Positions 1 through 61,856 of a stretch of DNA of 64,000 nucleotides are shown here, piece after piece. Each line of letters begins with the position of its first letter. Position 1 is the first letter of the stretch. The position numbers and the translations under genes were made by a program. The stretch comes from an uncultured Gemmatimonadales bacterium. Its GTDB lineage: Bacteria > Gemmatimonadota > Gemmatimonadetes > Longimicrobiales > RSA9. A model generated the notes under the pieces. It saw nothing but the letters and a program-made list of their open reading frames with translations, ran no database searches and was not told the DNA's origin. Location of the stretch: the NCBI GenBank assembly GCA_963798845.1, contig CAWCUS010000006.1:160001-224000 (forward strand), written 5' to 3'.

Positions 1-363
1 CACCCGCACCGACGTCCACACTTCCGGTGCCCGCCCCCGCGCCACCAGAGCACTGTCCGGCAGCGCACGGATCGTCTCGCCCTGGAAGTGTACCTGGGAC
101 ACCTGGCCGGCCGCGATCCGGGCCTTCAGTTCGCTGTACGGGATCTGCGCGCTCTCCTTGCCGCTCAACAGCAGGTTCAGACCGAGGAGCAGAACGAGCG
201 CCAGCAGGAAGTACAGGATGGAGAAGCGCGTCCGCCGGTTCCGCATCGGGTTGTGACGACGATCGTCCCGCCCGTTCCTGCGTTCCGGGCCTCGCTGCCG
301 GCCGCGGTCCCGCTCGCGCCGATCGTCCGGCCCCGTCCTCCGTTCCTGCCCGAATGGTGTCAT
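1..363 (-). CDS. ftsH: ATP-dependent zinc metalloprotease FtsH, N-terminal part (runs off window start)
   Basis: Manual translation from ATG at 363: Arg/Asp-rich tail, TM helix FSILYFLLALVLLLGLNLLL, then FtsH periplasmic motif QIPYSELKARIAAGQVSQV; open to position 1. Alternative start ATG 246. Not in ORF track; the AAA+ domain lies outside the window. Confidence 0.8.
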   Translation of the reverse strand, partial: MTPFGQERRTGPDDRRERDRGRQRGPERRNGRDDRRHNPMRNRRTRFSILYFLLALVLLLGLNLLLSGKESAQIPYSELKARIAAGQVSQVHFQGETIRALPDSALVARGRAPEVWTSVRV

Positions 364-5458: not shown

Positions 5459-6898
5459 TCAGGGCGTATTGGTGCTGCAGCCCGACGGGTCGTACTGCGG
5501 GTTGTTCCGCTCCTGGTACGGCACCGGGAACGCCACGTCGTCGCCGATGGCGGCGTTGAAGATGGTCGTCCCGATGGGGAACAGGTCATTGGCGGTGAAC
5601 ATCCCCTGGTAGGGGGAGATCGTGAGCAGGCGGCGCAGGTCGCCGAGCCGGTGCCCGGTCAGCCACAGCCAGAACGCGCGCTCCCTGTACAGCATCAGGA
5701 CGCGGTCCCTGGCGTTGCCCGGGTCCGACAGCGCAGGCAGATCCACCCCCGACCGGAGGTCGTTCAGGATCGCCAGCCAGTTCCCGGCCGCGCTGCTCCC
5801 CGCCGTGGCGCCACCGCTCAGGTTGGCCTCCGCGATGATCAGCTGCGCTTCCGTGTACGTCGCCAGCGGCACGCCCGTGCCCCGGCTCGGATACTTGAAC
5901 TGCGCGTACTCCGGAATCGCCGTCCCGCTCCCCACGGCGGCCGAGTCCACCGGCACCCGCGGGTCGATGATGTTGGCCGGGTCCGGCGTCGGGTTGTCCA
6001 CCGTGTTGGTCCCGATTCCGCGATTGAAGAACACGAGGCCGTTCACGCCGTCACCGGAAGCGGCGGACGAGCGCCGCTCGGAGTTGATGTTGTACCAGAT
6101 CCCGTTGTTCTGTGACGAGGCGTTCGGGCTGAACTCCACGTCGTACTCGAACCCCGACGGGATCTGCTGGGCCAGCGCCGCTGCGCCGGCCAGGTCGCCC
6201 TGGTCCTGCCTGACGCGGGCCATGCCCAGCCTCGCCAGGTTCACGAAGTCCGTGGCGCCCGCGGCCGTGCCCAGGTCCATTGCGGTCTGGAACCGAACGG
6301 CAGCCGAATCCAGCATCGCCGCCTTGTCGATGCCCGGCTCGAACACGATGTTCTGGCCGAGCGGCGCGTGGCTGAACGGGATGTGGCTGCACCAGTCCTC
6401 GGCGAAGAACACGAACGTGTACCCCGAGAGCGCCTTCATCTGCGCCCGGTAGGGGTCGTCCGAGTTCGCCGCGGCCAGGAGCTGCTCCGCCTGCTCGGCC
6501 AGGTTCCTGGCCCGGTGGAGGCGGTAGTACACGGTGTACACGTCACCGTTGGTGTCCTGCATGCTCCGGCCGTCGATCTCCTTCATGGTGTCGAACGTGC
6601 TGGAGTACCACAGCTCGTCGGCCAGCAGGCCGCCGATCCCCACCACGCCCGGTGTCTCGTTGTTCGCCGCGGGGCCGGCGATGGCCCGGGCGAACTCGAA
6701 GAGCGCGCCGTTGCGCACTGCCGGTGCGTTCGCAGTGTCCTCCACCGTGGGGAGGGTGATCAGGTCCGGATCCTGGAGGTTGACCAGCTTGTCCGTATTG
6801 CACGCGGCCAGCGCCAGGGTTGTAGCGAGCATCGCGACGCCCGCGAGCCGGAGAGGGCTCCCGAGCGGCGAGTCGCTCGTATTCGTCGTTCTCATCAA
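5459..6898 (-). CDS. RagB/SusD-family nutrient-uptake lipoprotein
   Basis: Lipobox LAAC, TPR-like helices, C-terminal ERAFWLWLTGHRLGDLRR and FPVPYQERNNP; directly downstream of susC. Confidence 0.9.
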   Translation of the reverse strand: MMRTTNTSDSPLGSPLRLAGVAMLATTLALAACNTDKLVNLQDPDLITLPTVEDTANAPAVRNGALFEFARAIAGPAANNETPGVVGIGGLLADELWYSSTFDTMKEIDGRSMQDTNGDVYTVYYRLHRARNLAEQAEQLLAAANSDDPYRAQMKALSGYTFVFFAEDWCSHIPFSHAPLGQNIVFEPGIDKAAMLDSAAVRFQTAMDLGTAAGATDFVNLARLGMARVRQDQGDLAGAAALAQQIPSGFEYDVEFSPNASSQNNGIWYNINSERRSSAASGDGVNGLVFFNRGIGTNTVDNPTPDPANIIDPRVPVDSAAVGSGTAIPEYAQFKYPSRGTGVPLATYTEAQLIIAEANLSGGATAGSSAAGNWLAILNDLRSGVDLPALSDPGNARDRVLMLYRERAFWLWLTGHRLGDLRRLLTISPYQGMFTANDLFPIGTTIFNAAIGDDVAFPVPYQERNNPQYDPSGCSTNTP

Positions 6899-14938: not shown

Positions 14939-17320
14939 ATGAACGAGACCAAGCTGGCGGAGCAGCCGCGTACTGCAGCGCTCCGCGACGATCTGGAGTA
15001 CCGCCCCCCATACCTGGGCGCCGCCCTCGCGGCCCTGGCCGTGTGGATCCTGTACGCGCTAACGCTGGCGCCCACCACCGGGTTCTGGGACACGAGCGAG
15101 TACATCGCCACCGCCCACATCCTCGGGATCCCACACCCGCCGGGGAACCCCACGTTCGTCGTGCTCGCCCGGGCATGGGAGCTTCTCCTGGCTCCGTTCG
15201 GGCTATCGGTGGCTGCACGGGTCAACCTGTTCAGCGCCACCATGAGCGCTCTGGCCCACGGCTGCTGGTTCCTCGTGGCCCACCGCATCGTGGCGTCCTT
15301 CACCCGCGACCGCAGGCTGCGGCTGCTCGGTGCCGCGCTCGCGGTCCTGGTGAGCGCCACCGCGTTCACCGTGTGGGCGCAGTCCAATTTGAACGAGAAG
15401 GTCTACACGGTCTCCCTTTTCACGATCGCGCTGCTGAGCTGGCTGACGTTCCTCTGGCGGGACAACATTGGGAAGGGGAAGGATGACAATCTCATCCTGC
15501 TCATGATCTTCATCCTGGCGCTGTCGGTGGGGAATCATCTCATGGCCTTCCTGGCGGCGCCGGCCATTCTGGTGTTCATCCTGCTCGTCGAGCCGCGCAC
15601 GCTGCTCAACTGGAAGCTGTACGCCTTCGGCGCGGCCGTGGCAGTGCTCGGGCTCTCGATCCACCTGTTCCTCCCGATCCGCGCCTCCCTCGACCCCGTG
15701 ATCAACGAGGCCGATCCGAGCACCCTGCACGCGCTCCTGGAATCGCTGGCGCGCAAGCAGTACGACAAGCCATCCGTGTTCACGAACCCCACGGACCTGG
15801 CCATGCCGCGCAGCATGCCGCTCATCCTGGCGCAGATAGGGAACTATCTCCAGTACTTCGATTGGCAGTGGGCGCGCGGGCTCAACTTCGCGCGGTCGCT
15901 CTTCGGCGGACTGGGCCAGAACCCGCCGGGCGGTGCGCCGATCCGGCCGCTCGTCACCCTGATCTTCGTGGCCGTGGGCGCATACGGGGCGTACGAGCAC
16001 TTCCTGCGCGACCGGACGAGCTGGTGGTACGTGGTGATCCTCTTCGCGACGGTCTCCATCGGCCTCGTGGGGTACCTGAACTTCAAGTACGGCTACACGT
16101 ACCCGCAGCCGGGCGCTGGCTACGACATCGAGCTGCACGAGGTCCGCGAGCGCGACTACTTCTTCATCGTCAGCTTCAGCATCTGGGGGCTGTGGTCCGG
16201 CCTGGGCATCTTCACCCTGTGGCGCCGAATGGCGGAGGTGCTCGGGGAGAAGGTGAGCTCGCTGGCGAGCGGTCGGAAGCGGAGGCTGGCTGCGTCGCCC
16301 GTGCTGGTGCTGGCGCTGTTGCCGCTGCTGCTGAACTGGAAGTACGCGGACCGGAGCCACCAGTACATGGCCCGGGACTGGGCGTACAACATGCTCATGA
16401 GCGTGGAGCCGTACGGAGTGCTCTTCACCAACGGCGACAACGACACGTTCCCGCTCTGGTACGTGCAGGAGGTGGAAGGGATCCGACGAGACGTCACGGT
16501 CATCGTCATGAGCTACCTCAACACGCCGTGGTATGCCAAGCAGATCAAGGCGCTGACGCAGCCGTGCCCCGCCGGCGTCGATCCCCTGGCGGACCCCACC
16601 CGGATCGCCTGCCAGCGGCCGTTCCAGCCGGAAAGGGACGCGCAGGTCTACGCGGCGCCCTCAGGGTCGCCGCTGGACAGCGCCGGCATGCCGGTGACGG
16701 GCATGGCGCGGCCCGCGTGGACGAGGCCGGACCGGTCCATCCTGCCCAGGTCGGACGCGTGGATCGACTCGATCCCGAACGTCTATGCCGCCAATCCGTA
16801 CAATTTCCTGATCCAGGAGCCGATGACACTGGAGGCGGACAGCCTCCGCTTCACGATACCCGGGAACCGTGTGCTGCTCCCGGCCGACGTGTTCATGCTG
16901 AACATCATCCAGAACTCGCTCGGTGACCGGCCGGTGTACTTCGCGACCACGACGCAGGCCTACGACCGGGTCGGCCTGAGCGACCACCTGGTGAGGCAGG
17001 GGCTGGCACTCAAGCTGTTCGACGGCGATCTGAAGCCCGACTCGACCGCCGGCATCTTCGCCATCCCGCCGAGCACGCAGATTCCCGGCGAATACGTGGA
17101 TCTCCCGGCCACGGACACGCTCCTCTGGAACGTCTTCGTCCACCGGGGCGGGATCCCGGATGAGTGGGACTTCTGGCCGGAGCCTTCCACCAAGAACATC
17201 CCGTGGTACTACGTCTACGCCCACTACGCGGCGTACACCGCCCACGTGCAGCTCGGGGAGGAGGAGAAGGCGCAGCGGCATTACGAGCGGATCGAAGCGT
17301 GGACCAGGCTGGCCCAGTAG
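14939..17320 (+). CDS. DUF2723 / TMEM260-family GT-C membrane glycosyltransferase (putative protein O-mannosyltransferase)
   Basis: FWDTSEYIATAHILGIPHPPGNP, EKVY, NH, RERDYFF, FTNGDNDTFPLWYVQEVEGIRRDV; multiple TM helices and a soluble C-terminal domain. Confidence 0.88.
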   Translation: MNETKLAEQPRTAALRDDLEYRPPYLGAALAALAVWILYALTLAPTTGFWDTSEYIATAHILGIPHPPGNPTFVVLARAWELLLAPFGLSVAARVNLFSATMSALAHGCWFLVAHRIVASFTRDRRLRLLGAALAVLVSATAFTVWAQSNLNEKVYTVSLFTIALLSWLTFLWRDNIGKGKDDNLILLMIFILALSVGNHLMAFLAAPAILVFILLVEPRTLLNWKLYAFGAAVAVLGLSIHLFLPIRASLDPVINEADPSTLHALLESLARKQYDKPSVFTNPTDLAMPRSMPLILAQIGNYLQYFDWQWARGLNFARSLFGGLGQNPPGGAPIRPLVTLIFVAVGAYGAYEHFLRDRTSWWYVVILFATVSIGLVGYLNFKYGYTYPQPGAGYDIELHEVRERDYFFIVSFSIWGLWSGLGIFTLWRRMAEVLGEKVSSLASGRKRRLAASPVLVLALLPLLLNWKYADRSHQYMARDWAYNMLMSVEPYGVLFTNGDNDTFPLWYVQEVEGIRRDVTVIVMSYLNTPWYAKQIKALTQPCPAGVDPLADPTRIACQRPFQPERDAQVYAAPSGSPLDSAGMPVTGMARPAWTRPDRSILPRSDAWIDSIPNVYAANPYNFLIQEPMTLEADSLRFTIPGNRVLLPADVFMLNIIQNSLGDRPVYFATTTQAYDRVGLSDHLVRQGLALKLFDGDLKPDSTAGIFAIPPSTQIPGEYVDLPATDTLLWNVFVHRGGIPDEWDFWPEPSTKNIPWYYVYAHYAAYTAHVQLGEEEKAQRHYERIEAWTRLAQ

Positions 17321-23783: not shown

Positions 23784-24887
23784 ATGGAAATCGGCCTTCT
23801 GCGAGCCGCCGCGCGCACCTGGCGCGTGGCGGCCGTCCTGATGGTAATCGCTCTCACGGGCTGCGACAACGTGGAGTGGGGCGGGGTGGAAGTGGCGGTC
23901 GTCCCGCCTCCGCCCAAGAGCGGCCCCGCCGAGACCCAGCTCGGTGAGGTCGAAGAGCTCCCGCAGGGCGCCATCCTCTACCTCGTCACGCGAGACAGCA
24001 CCCGGACCACTGCCGTCCCCGTCGCCGAGATCGCAGACGGCGAGACCCGCCCGATCCGCATGGGAGACGATCCCAAGACGTACGGGGACCGCTTCATCTC
24101 GTCGTTCCTCCGCGCGGGGGGAGAACTGACCCTCTTCCGGCACGGGCGACGCGCCGGGACCCTCCTCATCGACTCGGCCTCCGTCCAGCCGGCCGGCTGC
24201 ACCGTCCTCCCCGTGGCCGTCGGCCGGGCCGAGCTCTCCGGCCGTACCGGCGACGCCACCGAGTTCCTGGCCATGGCCCGGACCCAGGCCCCCCAGGGAG
24301 TCGTCCTCGCCCCCGATTCGCTCGAAGTCGAGCCGCGCATGCAGGTCGTGGGCAACATCCTCGCCGAGCGTATCCTGCGCGACCGTCACGCCCAGCTTCC
24401 CAACTGGTCCCGCGCCCGCCGCCAGCTCTTCCCCTTCCCCGTGGAAGGCTCTCAGGACCTGGGCTTCACCGCCACCTTCCTCGTGGACGACGCCCTCGAG
24501 GTAGGCGACGACGACCAGGGATACTCCCTCTTCGTCCTCTACACCCCCCAGGCCCAGACGTACGACACCGCCTACGTCGAATTCACCAGCTACACCGCCT
24601 CCGGCAAGGCCGCGCCCCGCGTCGTCGACTTCCTGGATTGGAACCGCGATGGCAGCGTCGAGCTCCTCCTCGATGTCTACGGCACCCGCGACAGCTGGTT
24701 CACCGCCATCGGCAAGACCGAGGGCGGCTGGCAGCAGATCATGAACGCCCGCTGCCCACCTTCCGCCACCGTCACCGACACCAGCGCCGGCCTCCCGGGC
24801 GAACCGGCCCTCGACTCGACCGCCGGGCCGGCCACCACGCCGGACACCACCGCGGCCCCCGGCGACAGCGGAGCCGTCTCGCCCTAG
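23784..24887 (+). CDS. Hypothetical lipoprotein with FG-GAP-like Ca-binding loop and Thr/Pro-rich tail
   Basis: Lipobox LTGC, DWNRDGSVELL, low-complexity C-terminus; good codon bias. Confidence 0.7.
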   Translation: MEIGLLRAAARTWRVAAVLMVIALTGCDNVEWGGVEVAVVPPPPKSGPAETQLGEVEELPQGAILYLVTRDSTRTTAVPVAEIADGETRPIRMGDDPKTYGDRFISSFLRAGGELTLFRHGRRAGTLLIDSASVQPAGCTVLPVAVGRAELSGRTGDATEFLAMARTQAPQGVVLAPDSLEVEPRMQVVGNILAERILRDRHAQLPNWSRARRQLFPFPVEGSQDLGFTATFLVDDALEVGDDDQGYSLFVLYTPQAQTYDTAYVEFTSYTASGKAAPRVVDFLDWNRDGSVELLLDVYGTRDSWFTAIGKTEGGWQQIMNARCPPSATVTDTSAGLPGEPALDSTAGPATTPDTTAAPGDSGAVSP

Positions 24888-28226: not shown

Positions 28227-30274
28227 GTGGAGCTGGCGTGGATCGCCGTCCTCGCGCTCGCCGGAGCCCTGGCCGGCCAGCAGGGCGGCGGTCCTCGCCC
28301 TGCCCGGGACACCGTCCCGGATACGCTCCGGCTCCCGGATCTCGTGGTCACGGCCACCCGCGTCCCGCTGCCGCGCGCGGCGCTCCCCACACCGGTGTCC
28401 GTGCTTTCGGGAGAGCGCCTGCGCGAGAGCGGCGTCGAGACCGTGGCCCGGGCGCTCCGGGAAGTTCCCGGGGCGGCGGTGGTGCGTGCCGGTGCCGCGG
28501 GTGCCCAGACGTCGATCTTCCTGCGCGGCGGCGAGAGCGACTACGTGAAGGTACTGGTGGACGGCGTTCCCGTGAACGACCCGGGCGGGGCATTCGACCT
28601 CACGGACCTCACCACCGAACAGGTGGAGCGGATCGAGGTGGTGCGAGGCCCGGTCAGCGTGCTTTACGGCAGCGACGCGATCAGTGGCGTCGTCCAGCTG
28701 TTCACGCGGCGCGGGCGCGGAGCGCCCTCTCTCCTCGCCCGTCTCTCGGGCGGCGTGGGCGCTCGCCCGGACCGATCGGGGGCCGGCGACGGCTCCGGCG
28801 CAGGCGCCACGGCCGGCGCCTTCCCTTCCGGCGGCGACACGTATGGCGATGCCGAAGCGTCTGCTTCGGTGACTGGCTCCACGGGCGAGGTCTCTTACGC
28901 GTTCGGGGGAAGCCGCGCCTGGACCGATGGGCTCTACCGCTTCAACAACCACCGCGACCTCGCGACGGGGAGCGCGCGCCTGGCGTGGACTGCCGCTCCC
29001 GGGACGGAGCTCGCGGTCACCGGCAGGTTGAGTGACAGCCGTTCGGGCTTTCCCACCGATGGGACCGGCGCGCTCGTGGACCGGAACGCTCGGATCGACC
29101 GGACCCGGATCACCGGCGCCGTGGACGGGGGGATCCGGCTCTCGCGACATTCTGGAGGCGGACGTGCGCATCGGGCTCACGCGCCGGCACCAGCTGACTC
29201 TCGACGGTCCCGACGGCGGCGCGGACACGCTCGGCGTCTTCGCGTCGGAGCTGGAGTGGAACGTGGCGCGGGTGTCGGCAGACGCCCACCTGAACGCCAG
29301 GCTTCCCTGGGGGATCCTCACCGCCGGCGCGTCGCTCGACGACGCCCACGCCGACACGCGCTACCACTCCCGCAGCGAGTGGGGCGCTTCTGCCGCTTCC
29401 GCCGACTACCGCCGCAGCAGCGCCGGCTACTACGCCCAGGTCCTCGCCGAGCCAGCCGCTGACCTCCACCTTACCGCCGGCGCTCGCCTCGACTACAGCG
29501 ACACGTACGGCGCCTTCGAGACCTACCGCCTCGGCGCCACCATCGGTCTGGTCCCCGGCACCCGTCTGCGCGCAGCGGTTGGCCGCGGCTTCCGTGAGCC
29601 GGCGTTCGACGAGAGCTTCGGCAGCGGCTTCGGCGACCGCGGCAATCCGGAGCTCGCGCCGGAACGGTCGCGCAGCTGGGAAGTGGGCGTCGAGCGCGAA
29701 CTCGGGAGTGCCGCCCATCTCGCGGCGACCTGGTTCGACCAGCGCTTCGACGACCTCATACAGTTCACGTTCACCCCCCCGGCGCCGGATGCGCCCAGCT
29801 ACTTCAACGTTGGCGCCGCCGCCGCCCGCGGCATTCGAGCTCGAGGCCTCGGTCCGGTTCGGCCGCCTCGACCTGGAAGCCGGGTACACGCGCCTCCTCA
29901 CGGAGGTGCTCGACCCCGGCCTCGCCTCCGATGCCGCGTTCACCGCCGGCAGGCCCCTGCTACGCCGCCCTCCCCAGAGCGGCTCCGTGCACGCGCGCCT
30001 CGCCATTCCCGCCGGGGCGCTCACGGCCACGGTCACGGCGGCAGGGAAACGCGAGGACCTGGATTTCGGCGCCGGCTACCCGGCGCCCCGCGTGACCCTC
30101 GCCCCTTACGCCACGCTCGACCTCACGATCGAGCGACGCCTTCCGATCCCCGGCCCCGCCACCACCGCCTCCCTCGCCCTCGACAACGTCCTCGGCGCCG
30201 CCTACGAGACCGTCCGCGGGTTCCCCGCTCCCGGCCGCCTCGCCCGCCTCGGCGTGCAGGTGCGGGTGCCGTAG
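28227..30274 (+). pseudogene. btuB: TonB-dependent cobalamin receptor, split by two +1 frameshifts (real or sequencing artefact)
   Basis: LVVTATR and plug ERIEVVRGPVSVLYGSDAISGVV in frame 1; barrel GNPELAPERSRSWE in frame 2; C-terminus YETVRGFPAPGR in frame 3. Shifts near 29145 and 29834. Confidence 0.8.
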
Positions 30275-30389
30275 GTCACCGCCCGGACGCACCTCGCCCC
30301 CGTGCGGCTTCGCGGCCGACGGGGGCGAGTGATCGCGGCTCGAGCGAGGGCGCGTCGGACGATCCGATCACGCCCTCAGCGCGGCCCGG

Positions 30390-31304
30390 TCACGGCGCGA
30401 GGGCCGCAGCCGTGATGACCCAGGCCACCGTCTGGGCCTGCGCGCTGCCGAGCGTGAGCGTCTGCACGGCAGCCGGCTCGGTCGTGAACGTGACGCCAGC
30501 GGGGCCGTTCAGGGTCAGCGTGTAGTCCATGCCGGGCTGCTCGTACTGGAAGTGCGCCTCGAACACCTGGTCGCCGTCGTCGTCGGTGAACGCCGCGGTC
30601 TCCTCGTCGCCCTCCGCCGGCGTCATGGTGACGCTGAAGTCGGCCGGCGTGAACGGGCTCGGCAGCAGCGCGTCGGGGTCGGCGAGGGTGATGTCGAACC
30701 CGCCGGTCACCGAGATGTCCGCCGCGTGCACCACTGCGTGCAGGTTGTAGCGGTTCGGGTTGCCGGTCTCGTGCAGGAACGACTCGTTCACCACGAAGTC
30801 CAGCAGCAGGATCTGCTGCGTCCCGCCCGTCACGTGGAGCCCGTGCAGCAGCACCTTGATCCCCGAGTTCCCGGTGCTGGTCATGTTGATGGTGCCGGTC
30901 GGCTCACCGCACTTCGTGTAGTCCGGGGAGGACGAGAACACTCCAGCGCCCGTGATGATGCAGGCATCGCCGAGCACCACGCGCAGCTGCCCGTAGTCGC
31001 CCTCGGGCACGTCGGCGCCGGTGGCCAGGTCGGCCACGGCGCCGGCGAGGCTGGTGAGCTCGAACTCCTGATCACTGTCCTCCAGCAGGTACACGCGCGT
31101 CCCGGGCGGATCGGCCTCGCCGTCGTCGCCCTGCAGGTAGATGTCCGTGAACGTGACCCAGGCCTCCTGGATCTCGTCACCGTTCGCATCCGTCAGCTTC
31201 AGCGAAACGGTGCCGTAGTCGTTCGCCGTGGTGTTGCCATCGCAGCCGGCCAGGGGGAGAATCAAAGCCACTGCCAGCGCAGCAAGGCCGCTGGTTCGGA
31301 ACAT
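30390..31304 (-). CDS. DUF4382-domain lipoprotein
   Basis: Lipobox LAGC, LKLTDA, VPEGDYGQLRVVL, SGIKV, LLDFVVNESF. Confidence 0.75.
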   Translation of the reverse strand: MFRTSGLAALAVALILPLAGCDGNTTANDYGTVSLKLTDANGDEIQEAWVTFTDIYLQGDDGEADPPGTRVYLLEDSDQEFELTSLAGAVADLATGADVPEGDYGQLRVVLGDACIITGAGVFSSSPDYTKCGEPTGTINMTSTGNSGIKVLLHGLHVTGGTQQILLLDFVVNESFLHETGNPNRYNLHAVVHAADISVTGGFDITLADPDALLPSPFTPADFSVTMTPAEGDEETAAFTDDDGDQVFEAHFQYEQPGMDYTLTLNGPAGVTFTTEPAAVQTLTLGSAQAQTVAWVITAAALAP

Positions 31305-58578: not shown

Positions 58579-58608
58579 AAAATAGACGCGTTTGCACAGC
58601 AACGTCAA
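58579..58608 (-). promoter_or_regulatory. Putative sigma70 promoter of csp
   Basis: TTGACG, 18 bp, TATTTT. Confidence 0.55.
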
Positions 58609-59207
58609 GAAAAACCTTGCACTCCGAACAGCCAGATCACGCCCAGCACGGCCGCTGCGGAGGCGAGCGGAAGGAACAGGTTGTCGTCCACCGCGAGATC
58701 CGGTGCCTCGATCACCGTGGCCGCGAGTGCGGCGACGGCGGCGGGGAGCGTGCCGACCCCGGCCGCTCCCATGATCAGCAGCCATGCCACCAGGAAGAAG
58801 GCGATGCTCCCTTCCAGCGTCTTGCCTCCCGGATAGCGCACTCGACCGTAGCGCTTGCCGAGGACCGCGGCCGTCGCGTCGGCGACGCCGGTGACCAGGA
58901 TTCCGGTCACGGCTATGGGAGCGGGGAAGAAGGCGGCGGTCAGCGCGTAGCCCACGGCCATGGTGGCAGCGCCGGTCACGCGCCGGTGCTCCTCCGGGCG
59001 CAGGAGGAAACCGAGTCTCCGCTCGAACCACGAACGGAAGTCGCCACTGAACTGGCGCGCCAGCTCGACGCCCACCGCGATGGCCGCGGCGACGGCCAGC
59101 ACGATGGCGCCCGTCGGGCTGGGGAGGAGGGAGACGCACGCCGCGGCCGTGACGGAGGCGGTGATGTGGATGAGCTTTCGCGCGGCTTCTCCACGCGTGT
59201 TCAGCAT
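58605..59207 (-). CDS. Phytol/dolichol-kinase-like (CTP-dependent) membrane protein
   Basis: RKLIH, ADATAAVLGKRYG, GKTLEGS, DDNLFLP. Confidence 0.8.
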   Translation of the reverse strand: MLNTRGEAARKLIHITASVTAAACVSLLPSPTGAIVLAVAAAIAVGVELARQFSGDFRSWFERRLGFLLRPEEHRRVTGAATMAVGYALTAAFFPAPIAVTGILVTGVADATAAVLGKRYGRVRYPGGKTLEGSIAFFLVAWLLIMGAAGVGTLPAAVAALAATVIEAPDLAVDDNLFLPLASAAAVLGVIWLFGVQGFS

Positions 59208-59212
59208 GCCGT

Positions 59213-61649
59213 TCAGTCGCCGGTGGCCTCGATGGGCTCGCCGAGCGCCCGGTCGATGTCGGGATAGAGGGCGCGGTAGAGGGCGCGGTGGAGCAGGACG
59301 TGGCGGATGTAGTCCCGGGTCTCCGGGTACGGGATCCGCTCCGCCAGGAGCTCCATGTCGCGGCTCTCGGGCAGCTTCTGCCACACGACCGCGCGGTTCG
59401 GTCCGGCGTTGTACGCGGACAGCACCAGCGGAAGCTCGCCGTGGAACTGTTTCATCAGGCTGGCGAGATAGCGCACGCCCAGGTGGACGTTCACTTCCGG
59501 CTCCTTCAGCATCGAGACTTCGAAGTGGTCCAGCCCCGCCCCACGCGCCAGGCCGCGGCCGGTCGCGGGCATGATCTGCATCAGGCCGATCGCCCCCGCG
59601 CCGCTGGACACCGCGGGGCTGAACGCGGATTCCCGCCGGATCAGCCCCGCCACCAGGTACGGATCAAGCCCCTGGTCGCGGGCTTCCGGCACCACCATGC
59701 TCCGGAAGGGGAACGGGTAGACGATGCGCAGGAGCCGCGGGTTCCACGCCCCTTCCCGATCCCGCAGCTGCCACCCGATCGACACGCCCGTGAGCGTGTA
59801 CCCGCGTGCGTTCAGCGCTTCCGCCAGCGCGTACTCGCCGTCCACCTCGCTGGAGAACTGCCGCCGCAGCTGCGTCACCTCCCGCACCATGTCGTCGCGC
59901 AGGTCCAGCTCCGACAGCAGGTCCACCCGGCGCAACGCCCGCCCCACGGCCGAGTCCGCCTGCGCATTTCGCGCCGGCGCGGACGCCATCGGGATGTCGA
60001 GCACGCCACGCCCCAGCAGCTCCGCGGCCCGCGCCCCATAGAACGACAGCGGGTCCCGCCAATGCAGCGCCTCCAGCCTTGCCGTGGCGAGGGAGTCCTG
60101 CCCCAGCTTCTCGTACATCCTCGCCGCCCAGTACGTGGCCTGCGACGCCCGACGGCCATCAGGGAAGCGGCGGAGGTACCCCTCGAAGAGGTCGGCGGCC
60201 CCGGCGAAGTCGCCGTCCATGATCGCGAGGTCAGCGAGCCGCATCCGGGCGAGCCCCGCCTCGTTGAGGTCGGGGGCGGCGGCCGCCGCCTGGCGGTAGT
60301 ACTTCCTCGCCTCGTCCGTCTTCAGGGCATCGTGCTTGAGGTCGGCGAGCATGTAGAGGCCACGCGCGGAGGCCTCCTCGTCCGGATACCGCCCGGCGAG
60401 GCGCACGAACGTTCTCTGTCCTTCGGCCGATCGGCCCTGCCGGTATTGGGCCCGGCCCGCCACGTACAGCGCTTCCGCGGCCACCGACGGCTCAGCCCCA
60501 GGCTCATCCGCCAGCGCCAGAAGCCGTCGCTCTGCGTCCTGGTAGCGCCCTGCGCCGAACATGGCGCGGCCGAGCTGCAGCTCGAATGCGCCGCCTCTGC
60601 ACCTCACTGACTCCGCCGCCCCCCAGGTAGTGGCCGAGCGCCTCTGCCGCCCCCGACGCGAAACCGTGCCGCAGGTAGATCTCGCCGATCATCCGCCAAT
60701 CGTCCTGCGACGGCGCCAGCCCGCTCAGCCCCCTCGCCGCCTCCACCGCCGCCGCTGCCCCCGGTGCGGCGTCCATGGCACTGCGGAACGCTTCCCCGGC
60801 CCGCGTCGAGTCCCCGCCCTCCAGCCGCAGCCGCCCCAGCCTGGCCCACGCGTCCGCGCGCTCATCGCCCTGGTCGGCGTTCCTCGCTGCGGCGAGAGCC
60901 ACCTCCCGTGCGAGCATGGGGTCCTCCGCTTTGGTGGCCGCTTCGAACCGGATGCGCCATCCGCGGTCGCGGTCCAGCCACCGGGACACGTGCGTCAGCC
61001 GTCGCGCGACCTCGGCGGTGTCCCCCGCCTCCGCGGCCACCCTCGCCGCGAAGAGCGCGATCCAGTCGCCGAACCACGGCACCGCCGCCGACGCGCTGTC
61101 GAACGCGCTCAACGCCCGCTCCGTCTCCCCTGCGTCCTCGAGCGCCAGGGCCCGTCGCAGCTCGGCCACGCCGAGCGCGGAGTCGCCGGGCGTCGCCACG
61201 GCGAGATAGCGGGTCAACGCGTCGACGGCCTGTGCGGAACGGCCGTCGCGCAGCTTTGCCCGGGCGAGCAGCGCCCAGCCTCTGCCGCCCCCGACGCTGT
61301 CCAGCCACGCTCGCCCCTCCAGGAGCCGCGCCACCGACGGCCAGTCCCCCCAGCCGGCGTTCAGCTCCGAAGCGACGAGCAGGGTCGCGGGTGAGGTGTC
61401 GGCAGCCGCGTGCAGGTGCGCCGCGAGCAGACGGCTCGCGCGCCAGTACCGCCCCTGCTTCGCCGCGTCCCTGACAACCTGCGGGATGCCGGGCTCCATG
61501 GTGCCCGTATCCTCCGGGGCGGCGAGGGCCGCGAACGTGCTCGCCGGGCGGATGGCGTGGGGCGAGGCGCCGCGCGAAAGCCGCGCGGGAATGGCAGCGG
61601 CGAGGACGAAGAGGACGACAATCGCGGGATGGCGGACCATGAAGTTCAT
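59213..61649 (-). pseudogene. TPR-containing soluble lytic transglycosylase (Slt-like), split by a +1 frameshift near 60585 (real or artefact)
   Basis: Signal peptide and TPR helices in frame A; continuation ELQLGRAMF...IRRESAF, GAIGLMQIMP, AYNAG, ETRDY in frame B. Confidence 0.8.
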
Positions 61650-61856
61650 CGAGTGCAACTGTCGGACCCGGGGTTGGCACGCGGGCGGCCTGCAGCGGCG
61701 GGTGCGCCCGACGGTCTCGACGGGATGTACACCGCTGGCGCTGAAACGCGCCGACTTTCGGGGCGGGCGCAAACGGGAAGCCCCGGGGCAAAACGAAAGG
61801 AGGCCACCCGGCGGGTGGCCTCCACGGAGCACACGTCGCTGTCGCGCCGCGTCACA

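Follow-up and report, generated by a model that had tools for sequence, protein, structure and literature searches.

A probable Bacteroidota-type protein O-glycosylation system in a Gemmatimonadota bacterium, with a TMEM260-like DUF2723 enzyme as candidate initiating transferase

Within 64,000 nucleotides of the genome of an uncultured Gemmatimonadales bacterium (contig CAWCUS010000006.1, positions 160,001 to 224,000; here called the window), the gene at 14939..17320 encodes a DUF2723 glycosyltransferase related to human TMEM260, and the predicted proteome indicates that the organism very probably has a Bacteroidota-type system for general O-glycosylation. Sequence statistics, control lineages, topology and a site in BamA give strong support to sequon-directed O-glycosylation of its envelope proteins, and for the role of protein transferase DUF2723 is a good candidate, though unproven. 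General protein O-glycosylation is described for B. fragilis, P. gingivalis, P. intermedia and F. johnsoniae (review PMC12871550). Among Bacteroidota that dominate in gut and soil, the envelope proteins it modifies number in the hundreds. According to that review the flippase, oligosaccharyltransferase (OTase) and ligase are undiscovered, and homologues of eukaryotic O-mannosylation enzymes are suggested as leads; the initiating enzyme was still unidentified in 2025 (PMC12871550) and in a July 2026 preprint (bioRxiv 10.64898/2026.07.27.740950). The system in Gemmatimonadota is probably an extension of the known one to a new phylum: the text of the review available to us names Fibrobacterota and not Gemmatimonadota, and its tree figure may show the phylum unnamed. 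Our literature search, with subscription papers largely outside its coverage, found no proposal of DUF2723 as a bacterial glycosylation enzyme, and nothing on Gemmatimonadota O-glycosylation was among the matches listed. Bacteria are likewise unmentioned in the accessible part of the TMEM260 structure preprint (10.64898/2026.03.17.711096).

The gene product is a 793-aa membrane protein with the sole PF11028 match (E 3.7e-36, 125 bits against a curated cut-off of 24.2) in the 4.26-Mb, 96% complete genome, and human TMEM260 (9rql) is its only sequence match in the PDB. The predicted model (pLDDT 82.4) has a GT-C fold with a periplasmic alpha-beta domain, and the top 20 rows of a structural search with it are all GT-C or GT-C-like (best match Z 24.1, root mean square deviation (rmsd) 4.8, 419 aligned). 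STT3/AglB/PglB head a Foldseek list, ALG12 and ArnT rank first in a wider fold search, and TMEM260 itself is absent from these lists. A full DUF2723 GT-C enzyme and a probable Gemmatimonadota host had both been read from the window in a preliminary description; the family match, the model and the retained essential residues confirm the former, and the latter agrees with the tree position of the protein among named Gemmatimonadota sequences and with its nearest Atlas clusters, which are mostly Gemmatimonadota. The parts of the gene referred to below are as follows.

14939..17320, + strand: DUF2723/TMEM260-like (GT117) GT-C glycosyltransferase, FCB-type (Fibrobacterota-Chlorobiota-Bacteroidota), single copy, from PF11028, PDB sequence match, model and trees
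15086..15136, + strand: W50-D51...H66, predicted sugar-recognition loop (human D52, H67), from alignment
15752..15763, + strand: R272 and Y275, predicted donor-binding residues (human R264, Y267), from alignment, with roles from the TMEM260 structure preprint
16139..16159, + strand: EVRERDY loop, V402 equivalent to human V352 (+1 pocket) and R405 to human R355 (donor), from profile alignment
16433..16444, + strand: GDND motif, D500 equivalent to the human catalytic base D441, from an ungapped alignment block
16676..17122, + strand: five sequons within the periplasmic C-terminal domain of the enzyme itself, against 1.8 expected

The only characterised DUF2723 relative, TMEM260, is a protein O-mannosyltransferase (PMC10214176). 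It glycosylates Ser/Thr of extended peptides from polyprenyl-monophosphate-mannose, and changes at D52, H67, R264, Y267 and D441 (the base) abolish its activity (10.64898/2026.03.17.711096); Ser is accepted (10.64898/2026.09.21.753134). Like human TMEM260 (CAZy GT117; PDB 9RQL, 9RQM, 9RQN), the protein studied here combines PF11028 with a GT-C fold, keeps five of five essential residues, as D51, H66, R272, Y275 and D500 (mapped by counting along printed alignments), and has equivalents of R355 and V352; all of TMEM260's monophosphate-mannose contacts are retained. These five residues are invariant in 31 Gemmatimonadota sequences. Among the 126 of 128 homologues long enough for comparison (102 FCB-type and 24 others), D51 and H66 are kept throughout (126/126), and the D500 equivalent is Asp in 100 of the 102 FCB-type sequences, the other two having gaps. 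Two residues, W50 and R403 (human V353), occur in 102/102 FCB-type homologues and 0/24 others. R403 is situated between the arginine that binds the donor and the residue holding the acceptor's +1 position, and human E466, a contact of the -1 position, is mostly replaced by Ser in FCB-type homologues. We infer that R403 and this Ser together read the sequon Asp, with model confidence low in the EVRERDY loop. Unlike TMEM260, then, the enzyme has Arg for V353, Ser for E466 and GDND for GDLP, and its substrate and donor are putative. Its five sequons (residues 580, 610, 634, 701 and 726) all lie past the last membrane helix, and the C-terminal parts of 37 Gemmatimonadota DUF2723 proteins hold 84 sequons against 33 expected. 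Most Gemmatimonadota have 2-4 DUF2723 matches, compared with one in this genome, and some Bacteroidota carry a second, shorter paralogue (600-700 aa); tandem copies occur.

The case for the system itself comes from the proteome. Sequons, counted as D-[S/T]-[AVILMT], were compared with the exact per-protein permutation value in 3028 sufficiently long and strong genes of the 3495 called with our own codon model, protein classes being assigned by a signal-peptide heuristic. Signal-peptide proteins (n = 360) contain 775 sequons against 507 expected, lipoproteins (n = 140) 334 against 183 and cytoplasmic proteins (n = 1468) 1229 against 1288. For signal-peptide and N-anchored proteins together (n = 424) the observed/expected ratio is 1.56 (bootstrap confidence interval 1.39-1.75) versus 0.95 (0.90-1.02) for cytoplasmic proteins, so the compartment bias that had been suspected from hand counts in the window holds proteome-wide. 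In the signal-peptide class, six controls with the motif altered by permutation or substitution (E-, N-, reversed, permuted) range from 0.77 to 1.04, and DSV, DSL and DSA take ranks 1-3 of 8000 tripeptides. The third-position excess is found at A, L, V, M and T and for DS-I (W is marginal, 1.09 with 28 sites), the spectrum reported for Bacteroidota glycoproteomes (PMC12871550, PMC10897501). Within 13 proteins, predicted periplasmic loops have 11 sequons against 4.7 expected and cytoplasmic tails 6 against 10.5, and in eight kinase-type proteins 26 lie outside (15.7 expected) and 3 inside (6.1 expected). Barrel-like proteins (n = 13) show no excess, with 20 against 25.8. A DNA-level or codon artefact was ruled out, codon use being alike in both classes, as was N-glycosylation of the STT3/PglB kind, for which there was no match over cut-off and no enrichment of N-S/T-x or E-S/T-x. 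Proteins above expectation number 233 of 424; removing the top 20 lowers the ratio to 1.28 and removing the top tenth lowers it to 1.13, and the cytoplasmic class trimmed alike gives 0.88 and 0.67. Contexts are distinct at 909 of 919 sites, often with a preceding Pro or Ala. Exported proteins at C5:82169-83782, C1:315080-316612, C1:92294-93721, C1:696055-696966 and C2:835976-839203 (contig and position in the genome), an LptA-like protein included, have 15-18 sequons each where 2-3 are expected.

With one pipeline the effect size is 1.57 here and 1.61 in Bacteroidota, whose exported proteins (59 loci around DUF2723) contain 138 sequons against 86 expected. The corresponding counts are 47 against 76 in Myxococcota with DUF2723, 16 against 24 in those without it and 49 against 65 in Verrucomicrobiota with DUF2723, the numbers for DUF2723-negative Myxococcota being small, as are those for Latescibacterota. 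More DNA from Myxococcota and Verrucomicrobiota, pooled, gave 139 against 196 (0.71), which implies that exported proteins normally have fewer of these motifs than expected. PF11028 was found in 150/151 Gemmatimonadota, 121/121 Bacteroidota, 40/71 Myxococcota, 27/71 Verrucomicrobiota and 1/14 control genomes. The suggested co-occurrence of DUF2723 with sequon enrichment stands for Bacteroidota and this genome and fails for DUF2723-positive Myxococcota and Verrucomicrobiota, where exported proteins are depleted (54 against 88 and 71 against 85); that any DUF2723 implies the system is ruled out. In midpoint-rooted FastTree trees the FCB sequences separate from the rest, with support of 0.94 in a tree of 89 sequences and 0.86 in one of 66, and divergent homologues that lack W50 and R403 are found in lineages without sequon excess. 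An Eisenbacteria genome sampled for its non-FCB-type copy showed an excess in LptD (11 against 4.0), BamA (5 against 2.5) and TamB, and it also carries an FCB-type DUF2723, as predicted. Equivalents of R272 and D500 are missing from most of the Myxococcota copies, and homologues of Myxococcota and Verrucomicrobiota have other acceptor-site motifs and may have other substrates.

Conserved envelope proteins give a comparison between lineages. BamA, chosen before counting, has 44 sequons against 27.2 expected in 14 Gemmatimonadota (42 against 13.8 in the POTRA part, 2 against 12.5 in the barrel) and 11 against 21.6 (0.51) in 10 non-FCB bacteria. One alignment column, in a comparison that omits a short Fibrobacterales fragment, carries a sequon in 12/15 Gemmatimonadota (this genome included), 3/3 Bacteroidota and 1/1 Latescibacterota, and in 0/1 Eisenbacteria and 0/10 non-FCB bacteria; all 12 from the window's class have it, compared with 0/3 Gemmatimonadota of other classes. 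The sole identified BamA glycosite of P. gingivalis listed in PMC8729774 Table S2 matches, by eye, the Bacteroidota segment at that column. LptD is above expectation in 30/30 genomes from 12 families (295 against 105), and TamB has 82 against 35.6 in Gemmatimonadota (10 proteins), 50 against 33.9 in Bacteroidota (8) and 22 against 26.8 in non-FCB bacteria (9; 0.82). The predicted system resembles that of Bacteroidota in an excess limited to non-cytoplasmic parts, in the preference for S over T, in the BamA site and in the core gene set. It differs in belonging to another phylum and in that YfhO clusters here with DPM1-like, flippase, gmd and second GDP-sugar genes beside lptCAB-rpoN.

The local neighbours of DUF2723 include no glycosylation genes, and among 69 loci the sole recurring glycosylation neighbours were GT2 glycosyltransferases (GTs), in three loci each, so operon logic was abandoned. 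Candidate partners lie on contig C5.

C5:68965-69696, strand not stated: DPM1-like GT2, best PDB match dolichol-phosphate mannose synthase
C5:73800-76190, strand not stated: YfhO-like GT-C, single copy in the genome
C5:76205-77143, strand not stated: membrane protein resembling lysylphosphatidylglycerol (LPG) synthase, candidate flippase

These genes belong to a cluster (C5:68965-79359) of DPM1-like GT2, GT4, gmd, a second GDP-sugar enzyme, a methyltransferase, the YfhO-like GT-C, the LPG-synthase-like protein and two GT2s, adjoining rpoN-lptB-lptA-lptC-kdsD-kdsC-kdsA; it could also have a role in lipopolysaccharide modification. In Eisenbacteria the flippase gene directly precedes DUF2723, and the same strand carries YfhO and the DPM1-like gene some 12 kb further along, about 1 kb of this region being unseen. 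A Fibrobacterales contig has a DPM1-like gene two genes after DUF2723, and the DPM1-like gene is single-copy in 41/41 Bacteroidota. P. gingivalis loci were assigned to families by annotation, and PGN_1026 (K00721) is presumably DPM1. Both the DUF2723 (PGN_0192) and the YfhO (PGN_1968) of P. gingivalis are reported as glycosylated (PMC8729774), and PGN_0192, PGN_1968, PGN_1026 and the LPG-synthase-like PGN_0249 are all on the P. gingivalis essential-gene list (PMC3547785).

Given that the system is present, we consider it rather probable that DUF2723 is the initiating transferase. We lean slightly towards a full model in which the DPM1-like GT2 would make polyprenyl-phosphate-mannose, the LPG-synthase-like protein would flip it, DUF2723 would bind it through D51, H66, R272, Y275 and R405 and, with D500 as base, put one mannose on Ser/Thr of D-S/T-hydrophobic sites in extended periplasmic segments, R403 (specific to the FCB type) reading the sequon Asp, and the YfhO-like GT-C would add the next sugar or ligate an outer glycan. 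The sequences themselves show the sequon excess with its compartment, the conserved residues, the co-distribution and the gene clusters; the presence of a glycan, mannose as the first sugar, which of the two GT-C enzymes acts first and the reading of Asp by R403 are the presumed parts of this scheme. Since DUF2723 and YfhO are both universal, each of the two periplasmic steps that still lack an enzyme would have a GT-C. More tentatively, and with somewhat less than an even chance in our estimation, the core pathway of Bacteroidota O-glycosylation may be an FCB-wide, eukaryote-like module of four genes (DPM1-like synthase, LPG-synthase-like flippase, TMEM260-type mannosyltransferase with an Asp-reading FCB-specific arginine, and YfhO extender or ligase) from the FCB common ancestor, which would transfer a single mannose and not a glycan en bloc, with catalytic machinery in common with human TMEM260. 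The four named genes and the residues D500 and R403 make a 15-year-old open question directly testable and set DUF2723 against the sole published candidate, YfhO. If true, the proposal would provide a bacterial model for the enzyme of a human congenital glycosylation disorder and a sequon-directed tool for glycoengineering.

Several observations weigh against this reading. Random DNA (400 kb) from 10 other Gemmatimonadota has 59 sequons against 58 expected (1.01; 37 proteins), a ratio below 97.5% of same-size samples from this genome; DS-[AVIL] in the same sample is at 31 against 22. Other FCB groups, in a small sample, have 15 against 17 (9 proteins). High counts had already been seen here when LptD and TamB were chosen, and sites shared by homologues are not independent of one another, so that the BamA, TamB and LptD counts are patterns and not p-values. 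In the current model of the literature a core disaccharide is moved en bloc (PMC12871550). Human TMEM260 reads a different, long IPT-domain sequon through a tetratricopeptide repeat (TPR) domain; a Pfam search found no TPR in the protein studied here, its model shows just a short helical end, and TPRs are present in the Eisenbacteria orthologue. It is YfhO and not DUF2723 that adjoins the DPM1-like and flippase genes in Gemmatimonadota (this genome and 4/5 other loci, the fifth being on a short contig). YfhO is present in 121/121 Bacteroidota and in 71/71 genomes of one family, which makes it as universal as DUF2723, and distribution cannot separate the two. PGN_1968, PGN_1026 and PGN_0249 stand in an essential-gene table shared with B. 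thetaiotaomicron, compared with DUF2723 in the P. gingivalis table only (PMC3547785). Finally, three more PMT_2-type GT-Cs score over cut-off in the genome, as do three Wzy_C/O-OTase-like genes.

The best-surviving alternative, though an unlikely one, is that the system is present and YfhO is the protein transferase, of a single sugar or of an en bloc core, with DUF2723 serving narrower clients or a glycan or lipid acceptor. YfhO (PF09586) shares with DUF2723 a GT-C fold, core status, a single copy in Bacteroidota and here, and essentiality in P. gingivalis; it is a separate family encoded by a separate gene. Its essentiality in two species, its universality, its clusters in Gemmatimonadota, which include DPM1-like, flippase and GT genes, and its position near wzx-like genes in four other FCB loci all suit a transferase, as does the appearance of Pmt and STT3 among the structural matches of its predicted model. 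The best match of that Bacteroidota YfhO model is nevertheless the glycan-acceptor enzyme AftD (Z 16.1, rmsd 5.4, 558 aligned; Pmt 13.7), by a small margin. The characterised YfhO of B. subtilis, moreover, glycosylates lipoteichoic acid, lineages that lack the sequon excess often have YfhO-like genes, and the proposed ligase of the outer glycan would also account for the linkage with wzx and variable GTs. Because the sole characterised relative of DUF2723 performs the protein-acceptor step with the same residues, and because the YfhO model is most like AftD, that step is modestly better assigned to DUF2723. Loss of YfhO failed as a discriminator, with 0/121 Bacteroidota and 0/71 one-family genomes lacking it and P. 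gingivalis having both genes; three FCB genomes negative by the Pfam model were positive by our own alignment. The case for YfhO as the Bacteroidota OTase was published in bioRxiv 10.64898/2026.07.27.740950, in the accessible part of which P. gingivalis is given as lacking YfhO; in Table S3 of PMC8729774, PGN_1968 is entered as a protein of the YfhO/PMT family.

Initiation by a third enzyme of PMT_2 or Wzy_C type, or transfer of a pre-built oligosaccharide by DUF2723, is quite improbable. The three PMT_2 and three Wzy_C matches would provide enzymes for the former, set against the lack of any PMT_2 match in the B. thetaiotaomicron control genome; the Foldseek list and the en bloc model of the review (PMC12871550) suit the latter, set against the retained monophosphate-mannose contacts and the ranking of ALG12 and ArnT in the wider fold search. 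Slightly less probable again is that nothing is glycosylated and the excess of these tripeptides is a bias, structural or linker-related, in the lineage's exported proteins, or a relic: the concentration in a minority of proteins, often after Pro or Ala, and the ratio near 1.0 in other Gemmatimonadota would fit this, but the flat permuted motifs, the depletion of BamA and TamB in non-FCB bacteria, the Bacteroidota-like third-position spectrum and S-over-T preference, the confinement to periplasmic parts, the BamA match to a measured glycosite and the distinct contexts argue for glycosylation.

The preliminary description had also proposed, from counts in the window, that the envelope proteome is O-glycosylated at the Bacteroidota sequon, possibly by this enzyme; the statistics, topology and BamA site bear out the first part, and the assignment to DUF2723 stays an unproven candidate. 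Candidate substrates and sites in the window are listed here.

23784..24887, + strand: predicted lipoprotein, 6 sequons (1.6 expected), no Pfam or NCBIfam family, candidate substrate
59213..61832, - strand: TPR and Slt lytic transglycosylase spread over two overlapping frames, with 7 sequons in all, candidate substrate (Pfam, count)
5459..6898, - strand: SusD-like lipoprotein, 4 sequons (1.9 expected), candidate substrate (Pfam, count)
28308..28328, + strand: DTVPDTL, a double sequon in a BtuB-like receptor's N-terminal linker (sequence)
1..246, - strand: FtsH N-terminus with PDSAL after the first membrane helix (sequence)

The hand counts were reproduced for the enzyme (5), the lipoprotein at 23784 (6), PckA (0), MaeB (2), PolA (4), BtuB (DTVPDTL) and FtsH (PDSAL). 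PolA had been offered as a low-count contrast and is not informative, since 2.3 sites are expected. The total of seven in an Slt of about 810 aa is right, but the protein is really two overlapping frames (59213-60607 and 60504-61832, with 2 and 5 sites). The sites claimed in BtuB, BtuF and SusD are present (DTVPDTL, 1 and 4), but the one in BtuF, with 1.3 expected, is uninformative and BtuB is split over two frames. The overlapping frame pairs at 59213-61832 (Slt) and 28227-30525 (BtuB) are probably assembly frameshifts.

58605-59207, strand not stated: 200-aa membrane protein, with a likeness to diacylglycerol/polyprenol kinases by Atlas features only

The suggestion that this gene supplies the carrier lipid is unsupported, there being no Pfam or NCBIfam match and no homologue in any other locus compared; PF01148 occurs on 41% of one Atlas cluster (language-model features). 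A better donor candidate is the DPM1-like synthase on contig C5.

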